Positions 19,019-26,421 of a DNA stretch of 32,000 nucleotides are shown here, piece after piece; position 1 is the stretch's first letter, and every line of letters begins with the position of its first letter. This stretch comes from Candidatus Babelota bacterium. Its GTDB lineage: Bacteria; Babelota; Babeliae; Babelales; Vermiphilaceae. A program made the translations under genes and the position numbers. The notes beneath the pieces are model-generated. The model was not told the origin of the DNA. It did not search any database and saw only the letters and a list, made by a program, of their open reading frames with translations. The DNA is taken from positions 60,001-92,000 of the forward strand of contig JBDHVY010000001.1 of the NCBI GenBank assembly GCA_039809905.1. Direction: 5' to 3'.

Positions 19019-19200
19019 ATGTCAGCACAAAGACCAACCTTAGACGATATCGTTGCACTCTGCAAAAGACGTGGTTTTGTATTCCAGTCATCAGAAATTT
19101 ATGGCGGCCTGAATGGGGTATATGATTTTGGTCCATTGAGCACCTTGCTTAAAAATAATATTAGAAACGCATGGTCAAAATCTATCAAATCTCCCGATAA
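19019..19200 (+). pseudogene. glyQS 5' fragment (codons 1-60), truncated at a rearrangement junction
   Basis: [60 protein letters not shown] is identical to the intact GlyRS N-terminus apart from one Ser/Gly difference. Homology stops abruptly at 19200. Confidence 0.9.
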
Positions 19201-19387
19201 TAAGAACCATCAGGATTTTTCATCAATTCAAGTAGTTTTAAATTAAGCATTGGTGCAATCATGCACATATCATTACTTTGTTGATGAAAAAAATATGTTG
19301 CTTCTTTTTTTGATCCATAGCAGGATCCATTGAATAGATATGAAAACAAAATGGTAATAATAAAAGTAATCCAATTATTTTTTTCAT
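19200..19387 (-). pseudogene. 5' fragment of a gene-X paralogue, truncated at the glyQS junction and out of frame with its own ATG
   Basis: 19200-19336 equals 17625-17761. It encodes ...[46 protein letters not shown]. The ATG at 19387 (MKKIIGLLLLLPF...) is in a different frame from the conserved part. Confidence 0.75.
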
Positions 19388-19472
19388 GATAACGTCTCAC
19401 CCTTCCCATAAGCTATTTATTTCAATTGCAAAAAAATAACTATTTTAAAGTAAACATTTTACAAAATTTAAA

Positions 19473-19540
19473 TATAATGAGGGTTTCTAAAATAAAATTA
19501 TAGGAAAAACACAAAGGTCCTACAGATTTATTTATCTGTA
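19473..19540 (+). promoter_or_regulatory. Candidate island promoter/operator: perfect -10 hexamer plus a 7-bp-arm inverted repeat just upstream of the RBS
   Basis: TATAAT at 19473-19478, with no good -35. Inverted repeat tacagat-ttattt-atctgta at 19521-19540, followed by AAGGAG and the ATG at 19558. Confidence 0.25.
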
Positions 19541-19557
19541 TATAAGGAGCTTATACC

Positions 19558-20055
19558 ATGTCAATGAATTTTATAATAATAAAAAATCTAAATAATTTTC
19601 AGCAAATAATAGAAAGCCCTATTTTTATAGGTTGCGATAAAGCTCGTCTAAATATGGAAATATCGACGAATATGTGGGCTATTTCAATAGCTCCTAAAAC
19701 ACTTAAAAATATATCTTTAGATTATTTATCTGAATTTGTAAAAAATCTTTTACACAAAAAGCTTCAACAAATATCACAATTAGCTATTTCTTGTCCTGTA
19801 ATTTTTTATATGTGGTTCGATGAAATGCCTTCTCAATTAAGATTTAATATAATATCGGAATCGCATAATCAACTCCCCTTTGCTTGTAAATTAAACATTA
19901 TAAATTTACCTGAGAAAATTTTAATAAATTTTTTAAAATCTCAACATAATCAAATAATTCCTTGGACCGATTTAATAGAAATCACAGATGATTCTGATGA
20001 AGTAGAAGAAATTCCTTTTATATTGGATGTATTTGTTATCCAATTAAACAAATGA
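19558..20055 (+). CDS. Putative immunity-type protein, family immA (copy 1)
   Basis: 165 aa with a strong RBS. Paralogue of 23813-24298 (shared NMW.IS, F.VK.L, IFY.WFD....LRFNII.E, LPF.CKL, acidic tail). Followed directly by a toxin-tail remnant. Confidence 0.7.
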   Translation: MSMNFIIIKNLNNFQQIIESPIFIGCDKARLNMEISTNMWAISIAPKTLKNISLDYLSEFVKNLLHKKLQQISQLAISCPVIFYMWFDEMPSQLRFNIISESHNQLPFACKLNIINLPEKILINFLKSQHNQIIPWTDLIEITDDSDEVEEIPFILDVFVIQLNK

Positions 20056-20059
20056 ATAG

Positions 20060-20131
20060 CGCATGGATTCTATAGATTCAAAAACTTTAAAACTTTATAA
20101 ACCTGCTGTTACTACAAGAATAGTAAAATAA
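20060..20131 (+). pseudogene. Orphan remnant of the toxin C-terminal tail
   Basis: Translates as (M)DSIDSKTLKLYKPAVTTRIVK*. Compare HIGSIDPKTLRIYKGPKHAKLKI* in the intact toxin and GSIDPKTLKFYKPAVAAKRIAK* at 24446-24514. Followed by taataattttaggagtcatc, the leader that precedes immB2 at 24513-24532. Confidence 0.7.
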
Positions 20132-20256
20132 TAATTTTAGGAGTCATCTTTTAAATATTATCTTTTTATAAATTAAAGTATTTTATTACTTGTTGAACAA
20201 TTGTATCCATTATATACTGAACCGAACTTTTATTTTTTTAACCACAAAGGTTTATC

Positions 20257-24514: not shown

Positions 24515-24535
24515 TAATTTTAGGAGTCATCAACT

Positions 24536-24832
24536 ATGCATTGCTGTCAATTAATGGCCGATTCTATCAATGATCAACGCATTCAAATTGGCTATGATCC
24601 AATAACTGGAGATTATTTTATACCTCTTCTTTATAAAGGAAAAACAACCGCATTACAATGTCTATATCTCTGCCCTTGGTGCGGTAAAAAATTACCCACT
24701 AGCCTCAACAATCTATGGTTCGAAATACTTGAAAAAGAATACAATCTCAATGATCCCGATAGTAAGGAACAACAAAATCTAATTCCTAATGAATTTAAAA
24801 CTGATGAATGGTGGAAAAAGCGTGGTTATTGA
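24536..24832 (+). CDS. Putative immunity protein, family immB (copy 2)
   Basis: 98 aa: MHCCQLMADS...CLYLCPWCGKKLP...DPDSKEQQNLIPNEFKTDEWWKKRGY. RBS AGGAG. Confidence 0.8.
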   Translation: MHCCQLMADSINDQRIQIGYDPITGDYFIPLLYKGKTTALQCLYLCPWCGKKLPTSLNNLWFEILEKEYNLNDPDSKEQQNLIPNEFKTDEWWKKRGY

Positions 24833-25347
24833 ATAATGAAATATTGCTGGCGAATAACAAAATATGATCCAAAAAAACGTAATTCCCAAGGATGGTTTCT
24901 TGAAGACACCTGGACCTCTTATTCAGATATTGGAGAGTCATATCAAGGTAAAAAAATTACTTATGATGAATATTCACAAGTGGAAAATCTCTATATAAAT
25001 GCAATAGTGGAATTTATGAAATGCTTAGATATTTCACACTTACAAGTTAAATACCTAGAGAACCATGGAAGTATAAATGAAGATCCATCGATTGAGAAGA
25101 CAGAAGTTATATTTGTTAATGCAATGAAAGAAAATGATTTGTTATCGTTGGAACAAGTTAGAATGGTATCAAGACTAATCTACGAGGATATTTTTGGTGT
25201 CAATTAATCAGCAAATATAAAATGTTCATTGATTTTGGTCATGACTATTATATGTTTATTGGTAGTAGATCAAAATGCAAAGATACTCTACAAAAAATAA
25301 AAAATTCTGGATTATTTGTTGAAGACTTTGAATCTCCTTATAGGTAA
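24752..25347. repeat. Cassette homology block, copy 2
   Basis: See 23140-23736. Confidence 0.8.
24836..25347 (+). pseudogene. immC copy 2, disrupted by a 1-nt deletion frameshift
   Basis: The ORF ends at 25207 (…RLIYEDIFGVN*). The next frame continues QLISKYKMFIDFGHDYYMFIGSRSKCKDTLQKIKNSGLFVEDFESPYR*, which matches the immC1 C-terminus. Comparing aaactgatattacga (copy 1) with agactaatctacga (copy 2) shows one base missing near 25178-25183. Confidence 0.75.
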
Positions 25348-25357
25348 ACTATTTTAA

Positions 25358-25945
25358 ATGAAAATATTGATAGTATTTCAAATTTCAGAATCACACCTAA
25401 TACACGTTGCAGTCACTCAGCAGGTGAAGACAAATATATATGGCTACAAAACACATGAATTGCATATATTTGATGAAATTGAAGCAAAATATATTCACAA
25501 CAACAAATCGATCATTTTAATTCGTGATAGTGCACAATATGTGATAGAAACATTTTGTAATTCTTTAGAAATGGCACTTAAGAATGAATTGATGTTAGAT
25601 CCATCCCTTGTTCCAGGAAAAATCGGATATTTTTTTAGTAAAGAAAAAGCTGATAATTTTGATGAAATAAAGGATGCGAAGAATATTTTTTCACAATATT
25701 GGGTATGGTCTTCTTTAGATAATGTACAAACATGGCTTTATAATGCAAATAATAAAATATATCTTGAAATAAGTCTCACTTATCCCTGGTTATTTTCAGA
25801 TCCAGAAGAAGGCGAAAATTATATTTCTTTCGATGAATACATGAGTAGCTATAAGCCCGTAGCTTTAATCGAATTGGAAAAATCACTTGTTTTGTCATGG
25901 ATAAATGAATGCCGTAGGCTGTTACAGAAAATGGAAACAGTTTAA
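25358..25945 (+). CDS. Chimeric ORF: N-terminal ~45 aa homologous to the toxin tip, fused to an unrelated ~150-aa domain ('immD')
   Basis: ILIVFQISESHLIHVAVTQQVKTNIYGYKTHELHIFDEIEAKY parallels the orphan tip at 24299 (LIGFPISESQQICIGINEGNTKNIYEYTTDKLHIFDAIEAYG). The remainder (…VWSSLDNVQTWLYNANNKIYLEISLTYPWLF…) has no counterpart elsewhere in the window. Confidence 0.55.
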   Translation: MKILIVFQISESHLIHVAVTQQVKTNIYGYKTHELHIFDEIEAKYIHNNKSIILIRDSAQYVIETFCNSLEMALKNELMLDPSLVPGKIGYFFSKEKADNFDEIKDAKNIFSQYWVWSSLDNVQTWLYNANNKIYLEISLTYPWLFSDPEEGENYISFDEYMSSYKPVALIELEKSLVLSWINECRRLLQKMETV

Positions 25946-25961
25946 TTAATAATATCCCAAT

Positions 25962-26044
25962 CACATTGGATCAATCAATGCTCAAACGTTAAAATTATAC
26001 AAGCCAGAAAACTTCCCGGAAAGTAACAAAGAAAGTAACAAAAA
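25962..26044 (+). pseudogene. Orphan toxin-tail remnant (the other half of the tip split by 'immD')
   Basis: Translates as HIGSINAQTLKLYKPENFPESNKESNKK, cf. HIGSIDPKTLRIYKGPKH. Different frame from 25358-25945. Runs into the immB3 start. Confidence 0.6.
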
Positions 26045-26365
26045 ATGGTTCATCCTCAACACTGTTGTAAGTTAATAGATTTGTTTCTTGATGATATTAG
26101 AGTGCCGATTCTATATTTCCCTGTTCCTAGAGAATATGCACTTCTCATGCTAGAAGAGGGTAGGAAACGAGGCCGAATGAATGCTGTACAAGGTATAATA
26201 TATTGTCCTTGGTGCAACAAGAAACTACCTGAAAGCCTACGAGACAAGTGGTTCGAAATACTTGAAAAAGAATACAATCTCGATGATCCCGATAGTAAGG
26301 AACAACAAAATTTAATTCCTAATGAATTTAAAACTGATGAATGGTGGAAAAAGCGTAGTTATTGA
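26045..26365 (+). CDS. Putative immunity protein, family immB (copy 3)
   Basis: 106 aa: MVHPQHCCKLIDLFLDD...IIYCPWCNKKLPESLRDKWFEILEKEYNLDDPDSKEQQNLIPNEFKTDEWWKKRSY. Followed by TGAATAATGAA, a vestigial immC start (ATGAATAAACAGTAG) at 26369-26383. Confidence 0.8.
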   Translation: MVHPQHCCKLIDLFLDDIRVPILYFPVPREYALLMLEEGRKRGRMNAVQGIIYCPWCNKKLPESLRDKWFEILEKEYNLDDPDSKEQQNLIPNEFKTDEWWKKRSY

Positions 26366-26421
26366 ATAATGAATAAACAGTAGGCATGAAGAATCTACAG
26401 ACTATCGAAATAAAGCTAACA

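Follow-up and report, generated by a model that had tools for sequence, protein, structure and literature searches.

The 32,000-nucleotide (nt) stretch of DNA analysed here (positions 60,001 to 92,000 of contig JBDHVY010000001.1 in the Candidatus Babelota bacterium assembly GCA_039809905.1, referred to below as the window) was found to carry a polymorphic-toxin locus of a protist-associated bacterium of the Babeliales (Dependentiae), in a chromosomal setting between htrA and glyQS. Its central gene encodes a toxin of 454 amino acids (aa) that ends in a tip related to the ribonuclease (RNase) of colicin E3, preceded by a gene for an AAA ATPase and followed by an array of immunity genes. The locus is probably best explained as a Sec-type polymorphic-toxin locus serving conflict between related Babeliales, with a ColE3-type tip, immunity proteins of the DUF6980 family, and an orphan or poly-immunity array. 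Every substantial open reading frame (ORF) between 19.2 and 26.5 kb lies on the plus strand, and all the genes claimed in the original prediction, which had been made from the letters of the window, were confirmed at their coordinates. The host-associated organism that it had proposed also agrees with the data, as the relatives found are Candidatus Babeliales. The genes and remnants of the island are given below in order along the plus strand; loci and proteins used for comparison are referred to by L and P numbers, respectively.

19558-20055, plus strand: immA1, orphan immunity gene of the family that goes with the 'type Z' tip; 35% identity to the ORF overlapping the stop codon of the P0008 toxin gene in L006/L007; no Pfam match
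20063-20131, plus strand: E3-type tail remnant (MDSIDSKTLKLYKPAVTTRIVK and stop), from the repeats and translation of the spacer
20257-21480, plus strand: AAA ATPase of the classical clade, 407 aa with a single AAA domain (PF00004, E = 6.8e-21)
21541-22905, plus strand: polymorphic toxin, 454 aa, characterised by Pfam, alignment of relatives, PDB profile search, AlphaFold2 (AF2)/Foldseek and hydropathy
22930-23220, plus strand: immB1 (DUF6980), predicted cognate immunity gene of the E3 tip (PF22400, E = 1.7e-16)
23224-23736, plus strand: immC1, orphan of the Ntox21-tip family; 72% to L008 11353-11883, an ORF overlapping the Ntox21-tipped toxin gene at its end
23813-24298, plus strand: immA2, second orphan immA copy; 54-58% to post-toxin ORFs of L006/L007 and to ORFs of the L003 array
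24302-24514, plus strand: chimeric remnant, an immD-like start fused to an E3 tail, with an internal stop codon (translation)
24536-24832, plus strand: immB2 (DUF6980), orphan for a displaced E3-type tip (PF22400, E = 7.7e-13)
24836-25347, plus strand: immC2, frameshifted near 25190-25220 (translation)
25358-25945, plus strand: immD, orphan of the unnamed 'type X' tip family; 55% to L003 11857-12444 and 92% at the nucleotide level to the sole immunity gene of L010
25962-26006, plus strand: E3-type tail remnant (HIGSINAQTLKLYKP) upstream of immB3, from translation of the spacer
26045-26365, plus strand: immB3 (DUF6980), orphan (PF22400, E = 6.2e-14; 89% to the DUF6980 gene of L005)

The toxin consists of a signal-like segment (aa 1-25), a hydrophobic region (aa 26-61), a trunk extending to about aa 352 (NKLENIVVAGG), a linker rich in K, D and N, and a tip at about aa 375-454. 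In a Pfam scan of the toxin at E<=1, residues 401-448 matched 'Cytotoxic' (PF09000), the RNase domain of colicin E3, with E = 5.6e-5 and 23.8 bits against a gathering score of 22, and a profile built from seven tips and searched against all PDB sequences matched colicin E3 chains only (1e44_B, E = 6.5e-5). The WDxxHxxxE and HxGSxDPKT motifs align residue for residue with colicin E3, and the predicted catalytic residues D417, H420, E424 and H432 are intact, corresponding to those in WDSQHGELE..QHLGSFDPKT of colicin E3. H432 is the second histidine stressed by Zhang et al. (2012, PMC3482391), who catalogued Tox-ColE3 as a polymorphic-toxin tip. A KRKR motif is located at 400-403. Thus, an E3-like tip with this catalytic motif, as originally predicted, is borne out by a PF09000 match above threshold and by the PDB profile matches; the positions then given for D417/H420/E424 and for KRKR at 400 were exact, and the second histidine can be added to them. 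By sequence, the tip is a ColE3-type RNase, and the AF2 model of residues 349-454, with a core predicted local distance difference test (pLDDT) score of about 90, contributes fold evidence that is supportive, not decisive.

The remaining matches in the same scan were two noise matches, and TPS-FHA/VENN, RHS/YD, PAAR, LXG/WXG and MafB-N (DUF1020) domains were not among them; no island ORF had a Pfam match to colicin T/R domains, Im3/cloacin immunity or lysis families. The statement made at the outset that VENN, Rhs, PAAR, LXG, MafB, colicin T/R domains, a lysis gene and an integrase are missing was therefore correct for the island and window. The remnant of a colicin plasmid was rejected as a candidate, as there are no T/R domains or lysis gene and the setting is chromosomal, and a contact-dependent inhibition (CDI), Rhs, T6 or T7 toxin was rejected, as no such domains were detected in the toxin scan. 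The Pfam search that had been proposed with the original prediction matched the Cytotoxic and AAA families and assigned immB to DUF6980, not to cloacin immunity.

The trunk belongs to a Babeliales-specific family for which no Pfam model exists. Homologues of about 610-630 aa with 37-44% identity have residues ~30-355 of the window toxin in common with it and are fully divergent thereafter (alignment A1). Their trunks end in the motif AEAKNKLESIVVAGSPQ, followed by an N/D/K-rich linker and the tip, and the usual order is a signal-like N-terminus, a PT-HINT domain, a hydrophobic segment rich in G, A, S and T, the trunk of about 300 aa, the linker and the tip. PT-HINT (PF07591) exceeded its threshold in P0006 and P0127; the other HINT-bearing homologues gave matches that were consistent with it but fell below the threshold. 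At least five tip types follow the trunk in alignment A1, which is conserved up to NKLE(N/S)IVVAG; by member, the tips are Ntox21 (P0006 and the L008 toxin), Ntox37 (P0141), ColE3 (the window, P0004, P0126 and P0127) and at least three unnamed types. An exhaustive HMMER search returned 268 representative proteins at E<=1e-3, most of them 580-650 aa long and HINT-bearing, together with several of 426-474 aa that consist of a genuine signal peptide and the trunk without HINT. One member carries the NCBI name 'polymorphic toxin-type HINT domain-containing protein [Candidatus Babeliales]'. A scan of genome contigs for relatives yielded L008 and L009 only, and a scan of viral contigs with the trunk alignment gave no matches. 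In a shorter family (P0012-P0016, 309-320 aa), the signal peptide, HINT and hydrophobic segment are joined straight to an E3-type tip.

PT-HINT was not found in the window toxin by the Pfam scan, and the first 25 residues of this protein (MKRFFLLYYLALSVMLWPSDITCNPS) align with the last HINT strands of its relatives (LLYYLTVEDHIFCIAPSDVYVHNAE), so the HINT body has been deleted in the window lineage. The HINT-less form is present in at least four sampled genomes, with two different tips. Its N-terminus in the window is MKR plus a hydrophobic stretch, with a segment of transmembrane (TM) length at aa 26-61 according to hydropathy, and the N-termini of the relatives are clearly signal-like. In the HINT domains of the relatives the His-Asn preceding the hydrophobic segment is invariant and the N-terminal Cys is variable; by analogy with intein/HINT chemistry, these domains may undergo C-terminal cleavage by Asn cyclisation. 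The original prediction had seen here an undescribed system with no known delivery, a view that is only partly upheld: relatives of the toxin carry a signal peptide and PT-HINT with Ntox21, Ntox37 or ColE3 tips, and this architecture places the locus within the Sec/type II secretion system (T2SS)-dependent polymorphic toxins, a class for which Tox-ColE3 with HINT has already been catalogued (PMC3482391).

Immunity genes were paired with tips by adjacency, based on tblastn searches of the fetched loci with the window ORFs and on the gene tables of these loci. The products of immB1, immB2 and immB3 matched PF22400 with 48.9-60.7 bits (gathering score 27) and contain the pattern CPWC..EWWKKRG; 92 homologues of the DUF6980 immunity proteins carry the same Pfam domain. 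A DUF6980 gene comes after each E3 tip in L004 (three times, one after an orphan tip of 55 aa), in L005 and in the window, such that seven of the eight E3 tips or tail remnants are followed by one. The immC family overlaps the end of the Ntox21-tipped toxin gene in L008, the immD homologue of L003 overlaps the stop codon of the gene for the type X toxin P0007 (tip pattern PFGKYEDAPYH..HGHVR), and the immA homologue overlaps that of the type Z toxin P0008 in L006/L007. Each immunity family thus appears, by adjacency only, to follow one tip type: immB with ColE3, immC with Ntox21, immD with type X and immA with type Z. For immA, immC and immD the Pfam scan found no family, and hydropathy revealed no hydrophobic segment in any of the immunity proteins. 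The AF2 model of immB1 has a pLDDT of 92.8 and no PDB fold match in Foldseek; a confident model with no solved structural relative suggests that immB1 is not of the Im3 type. A DUF6980 gene was also observed at L097 3914-4273, on a plasmid of Candidatus Megaera polyxenophila (CP113872.1), a ciliate symbiont of the Rickettsiales. There it adjoins a gene for an NB-ARC/TPR LuxR-type protein, not a toxin, and this occurrence does not independently corroborate the pairing of tip and immunity gene. Literature searches on DUF6980, on Dependentiae polymorphic toxins and on colicin-like toxins of the Babeliales yielded no papers.

Beyond immB1 the array contains seven further immunity genes, six of them intact and one, immC2, frameshifted, and three E3 tail remnants. 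Judged from its sequence, it is composed of one cognate antidote, spare antidotes and displaced tip fragments. An orphan tip/immunity array, interpreted as a locus of C-terminal swapping, had been part of the original prediction, and the repeats, the comparison with L010 and the translation of the spacers agree with it. Three degraded tips had also been claimed, and three E3 remnants were indeed located (20063-20131, 24440-24514 and 25962-26006). The tip-like start assigned to ORF 25358-25945 was not upheld, since this stretch is immD's own N-terminus and is also conserved in L008 and L003. In the chimera at 24302-24514, the first ~40 codons are immD-like (24302-24439) and match the immD N-termini of L008 and L003, the join reads IEA|YGKN, and the E3 tail occupies 24440-24514. 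The iterated repeat architecture was recovered as a unit of 173 nt present three times with 82-83% identity (starts at 23056, 24668 and 26201), and as units of 300 nt and 167 nt, each present twice with 89% identity.

Locus L010 has the same synteny as the window, namely htrA, the AAA-toxin-immD cassette, glyQS, trkH and trkA. The two are 89% identical over the AAA gene and the trunk, as far as window position 22613 (toxin residue ~357); the L010 tip is unrelated to that of the window, and homology resumes at immD (92%) and continues in glyQS (87%). As identity ends at about residue 357 and the tips are unrelated, this is taken as the swap point, and the alignment indicates that the window differs from L010 by replacement of the tip and by about 3.4 kb of extra modules. 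The synonymous divergence (dS) between window and L010 is 0.10-0.24 for the AAA gene, trunk and immD, three to seven times lower than the 0.77 of the adjacent glyQS, and the cassette therefore seems to have been exchanged between strains recently, after the flanking chromosome had diverged. The ratio of nonsynonymous to synonymous divergence (dN/dS) is 0.2-0.43 for the island genes (trunk, AAA and immunity genes), with values of about 0.4 for the trunk, 0.33 for the AAA gene and 0.40 for immB1 versus immB2, and 0.05 for glyQS; these values indicate moderate purifying selection on the island genes.

In the mechanism proposed, the toxin would be exported via its N-terminal signal-like and hydrophobic region, and the family-specific trunk would carry or present the C-terminal RNase, assigned by homology to the colicin E3 type. 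By the same homology, the RNase is expected to cut 16S rRNA at the decoding centre in the cytoplasm of a related bacterium, and conserved adjacency suggests that the producer would be protected by the product of the next gene, immB1. Tips are exchanged by recombination at the end of the trunk, near residue 357, as the comparison with the syntenic L010 shows. Older tip/immunity modules would in this way be displaced downstream, accounting for the three decayed E3 tails, the two further immB alleles, immC, immD and immA, and the spare antidotes may guard against the toxins of neighbours. PT-HINT has been deleted in the window lineage, where the upstream AAA ATPase may handle the toxin.

The AAA gene is co-oriented with the toxin gene and ends 60 nt upstream of it. 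The PF00004 match agrees with the original assignment of 20257-21480 as an AAA+ ATPase, and the Walker A (GKPGVGKT) and Walker B (IIDEI) motifs are intact. By hydropathy, the N-terminus is only weakly signal-like, and the C-terminal tail (aa 374-400) resembles a TM segment. The best solved relatives of the AAA profile in the PDB are p97/Cdc48 (8e-18) and Msp1/ATAD1 (4e-13). All 17 AAA homologues detected are in Babeliales-type sequences. When the AAA alignment was used to scan metagenomes, the matches were generic Walker-A patterns and FtsH-like loci, with L013 as the only real relative; PADLOC and NCBIfam returned nothing specific.

AAA loci of the same lineage as the window are L005, L010 and the contig of P0003/P0018. 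At one further syntenic position (L012, L093 and L096), the AAA gene is located 55-140 nt upstream of the gene for a signal-peptide toxin of 877-985 aa; the tip is EndoU in L093 and L096, and in L012 a tip without an assigned family is followed by a CdiI-like gene. At another position, two AAA genes precede a toxin gene whose product is 928 aa, with a tip of no assigned family, in L011 and 993 aa, with an EndoU tip, in L094; L095 has two AAA genes adjacent to a gene for an RNase_A_bac toxin that is oriented divergently. Thus, each of the four independent positions examined has an AAA homologue next to a polymorphic toxin; in three of them it is directly upstream in the same orientation, with gaps of 40-140 nt. 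Around the HINT-bearing toxins of L003, L004, L006, L007 and L008, no AAA homologue was present to a distance of 10 kb.

The large toxins of these loci (L012 7165-9798, L011 8572-11358, L093 9085-11928, L094 10557-13538 and L096 9398-12355) constitute a second family, with a signal peptide, a trunk of ~750 aa that has no Pfam match and ends in VTAEGI, a variable tip (EndoU in three of five) and no HINT. Profile-profile comparison of the two trunk families disclosed no relationship (probability 0.4%). One or two AAA genes are located upstream in all five loci, and small ORFs follow the toxin gene in four, including a CdiI-like gene in three; L011 ends at the contig edge. In L093 and L096, a gene for a WD40 protein of ~640 aa is directly 3' of the EndoU toxin gene. 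The window-type AAA gene is usually joined by a further, more distantly related AAA paralogue (384-483 aa), as a tandem pair in L011, L094 and L095 and downstream of the immunity array in L012, L093 and L096; the window has one AAA gene only. In L004 (GCA_009612835.1; 1-635, 8821-9993 and 11294-11575), short HINT-ColE3 toxin genes are interleaved with genes for AAA_14/DUF4143-type ATPases, which are a different family from the window AAA.

The occurrence of the ATPase with a polymorphic toxin at all four independent positions supports a functional link, and with it the original proposal that the AAA ATPase is part of the system. From gene order, there is about an even chance that it is an accessory factor for toxin handling, for example in unfolding, membrane extraction or release. 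A stronger version, in which the single-domain, membrane-tethered AAA family of Dependentiae would be the dedicated partner of HINT-less signal-peptide polymorphic toxins and would drive their unfolding, extraction or release with ATP as a new accessory or delivery component, is tentative and on balance doubtful. The AAA-toxin linkage is the part of the system for which no prior description was found in the literature.

Several points weigh against the interpretation given so far. The Foldseek match of the tip model to colicin E3 (1jch_A), although the top one in the PDB, is weak (E = 0.042, TM 0.38), export of the toxin is a prediction from hydropathy and from the architecture of its relatives, and the E3 remnant at 20063-20131 has no following DUF6980 gene. 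On inspection of its sequence the AAA protein does not have the canonical aromatic pore loop, and its linkage to toxins was sampled at four independent genomic positions only. It also resembles an expanded family of AAA ATPases in Babela massiliensis that bear atypical signal peptides and have been predicted to be secreted effectors acting in the amoeba host (PMC4378268). This family makes it plausible, if somewhat less so than a link, that this is a toxin locus of the ordinary Sec/T2SS kind, beside which the AAA ATPase is an unrelated neighbour from a family of host-directed AAA proteins, secreted or membrane-bound, that has expanded in the lineage. HINT-bearing relatives manage with no AAA gene next to them, and in L010 the AAA gene (9625-10840) is split into 142 and 279 aa, through decay or an error in a low-coverage assembly, and the toxin is intact. 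An unrelated neighbour would nevertheless not be expected to adjoin toxins of two unrelated trunk families at four of four positions; with few toxins among ~1,100 genes, fourfold adjacency by chance is very unlikely on a rough estimate. That the AAA gene belongs instead to an IstB-like mobile element as its helper, or to an anti-phage defence or toxin-antitoxin island, is hardly credible, and these candidates were rejected. The Pfam model IstB_IS21 did match with 31.5 bits against a gathering score of 24.1, and PADLOC gave weak matches to TRIP13 and IetA, but the PF00004 match is far stronger, p97 and Msp1 are the best solved relatives, and the NCBIfam IstB model reached 40 bits against a cut-off of 200. 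Moreover, the window has no IstA transposase or defence partner, and the toxin N-terminus is predicted to be of the export type, unlike that of intracellular toxins of toxin-antitoxin systems.

The target of the toxin was weighed in the same manner. The original prediction had considered host ribosomes to be as likely a target as those of competitors, which is now disfavoured. A host-directed effector that cuts cytosolic or organellar ribosomes of the protist, with immunity needed only to protect the producer before export, would suit an intracellular parasite with effector-like genes in the context of the locus (MavL-like and ankyrin proteins); the T2SS is the only secretion system reported for Babela (PMC4378268), and reuse of polymorphic-toxin domains against the host is known from endosymbionts (PMC3482391). 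Host-directed versions, however, are typically devoid of immunity genes (PMC3482391), and here intact antidotes are kept for tips that the strain does not make, with dN/dS of 0.2-0.4. Spare antidotes under purifying selection would pay only if related bacteria attack. Together with these kept antidotes, the co-variation of tips and immunity genes between strains is a signature of inter-bacterial conflict, and a host-directed role is accordingly rated improbable. The view that loss of HINT disabled the toxin and that the array is drifting debris is less probable still. It draws on the frameshift in immC2, the three degraded tails, the HINT-strand remnant at the toxin N-terminus and the in-frame stop inside the E3 tip of the L005 toxin gene (1554-2942), which again may reflect decay or an assembly error. 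Set against this are the conservation of the HINT-less form in at least four sampled genomes with two tips, the dN/dS of the trunk and AAA gene quoted above, the intact catalytic residues, and the existence of independent HINT-less family members with clean signal peptides. A toxin locus for conflict between related Babeliales therefore remains the preferred explanation.

The boundaries of the island are marked by a 198-nt direct repeat of the glyQS 5' end, detected with a repeat finder (97% identity), as listed below.

19008-19205, plus strand: left boundary repeat, a truncated duplicate of the glyQS 5' end (97% to 26485-26682; 92% to L010 glyQS)
19197-19336, plus strand: recombination junction, a 140-nt copy of 17622-17761, part of a minus-strand ORF (99% identity), which abuts the glyQS' fragment
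26485-26682, plus strand: right boundary repeat, the 5' end of the intact glyQS (26496-27818), from the repeat search

A weaker copy of the glyQS promoter region occurs at 18762-18812. The upstream copy of the glyQS 5' end is absent from the syntenic relative L010, and the junction at 19197-19205 could have arisen when a circularised piece of donor DNA inserted by a single (Campbell-type) crossover, or from a tandem duplication with later deletions. The scan for promoters and terminators gave no usable information, as shuffled sequence contained more promoter-like sites than the native one. On the minus strand at 17108-17888, two overlapping ORFs (147 and 135 aa) look like one signal-peptide gene split by a frameshift, part of which is the source of the duplicate at 19197-19336. 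Also on the minus strand, 4847-6343 encodes a protein of 498 aa of the MavL-like ADP-ribosylhydrolase family (PF16062, E = 2.4e-122), a family known from a Legionella effector; the gene is kept in L010.

Dependentiae are protist parasites with reduced genomes, known chiefly from genomics. The combination of swappable tips, a recently exchanged cassette and retained spare antidotes suggests that related strains actively fight one another with toxins in an intracellular habitat. If the AAA family is indeed a dedicated partner of the toxins, it would be used when strains of these obligate intracellular parasites, whose genomes measure ~1.2 Mb, fight each other during co-infection, and the linkage offers a testable hypothesis for how Sec-type polymorphic toxins with no known release or translocation module are handled. 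Candidate functions can be assigned to DUF6980, as immunity to ColE3-type RNases, and to immA, immC and immD, as immunity families without a Pfam match, and two toxin trunk families of the Babeliales are defined. The kind of system is already known (PMC3482391); new here are the Babeliales trunk families, the N-terminal HINT and its loss, immunity of the DUF6980, immA, immC and immD types, and the recurrent AAA partner, on none of which a publication was found in the literature.

Comparison with known systems places these features in context. With colicin E3 and cloacin DF13, the window toxin shares a homologous cytotoxic RNase domain with D-x-x-H-x-x-x-E and the second histidine; it differs in that translocation and receptor domains, a lysis gene and a plasmid are all missing and the immunity protein is not Im3-like. 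As in CDI (CdiA-CT/CdiI), Rhs and MafB arrays, displaced tip/immunity modules have built up downstream of the main toxin gene; the pre-tip motif NKLE(N/S)IVVAG plays the role that VENN has in CdiA, and a Sec signal, predicted for the window toxin, is known from MafB toxins. Unlike those systems, the toxin has no TPS/FHA, VENN, RHS/YD, PAAR or MafB-N (DUF1020) domain, and CdiB or type VI secretion system (T6SS) genes are absent from the window. Pvc15/Afp15 of extracellular contractile injection systems (eCIS) and ClpV of the T6SS resemble the window AAA protein in being AAA ATPases encoded beside toxin cargo, and the closest solved relatives of the latter are of the Cdc48/p97 type. Here, in contrast, a single AAA domain in a protein of 407 aa with a hydrophobic C-terminal tail is combined with a toxin N-terminus predicted to be of the Sec type, and no phage-tail-like sheath, tube or baseplate genes are present in the window or among the called genes of the AAA loci. 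The AAA family of Babela massiliensis (PMC4378268) comes from the same phylum and is an expanded set of proteins with atypical signal peptides; its members contain a permuted Ulp1 peptidase domain, for which the toxin-linked window protein is too short. The nearest counterpart is the Sec/T2SS class of PT-HINT/Tox-ColE3 toxins (PMC3482391). The window locus departs from it in its Babeliales-specific trunk without a Pfam model, in the position of HINT, which in this family is N-terminal after the signal peptide, not pre-tip, and is lost in the window protein, in immunity of the DUF6980 type and not Imm-Cloacin or Imm45, and in the AAA ATPase partner, which is not listed for the class. What the two have in common is a toxin, with a signal peptide that in the window protein is a prediction, whose N-terminal part is conserved and whose C-terminal toxin domains recombine, an immunity gene immediately downstream, poly-immunity or orphan arrays, and, among the relatives, the Ntox21, Ntox37 and ColE3 tips.

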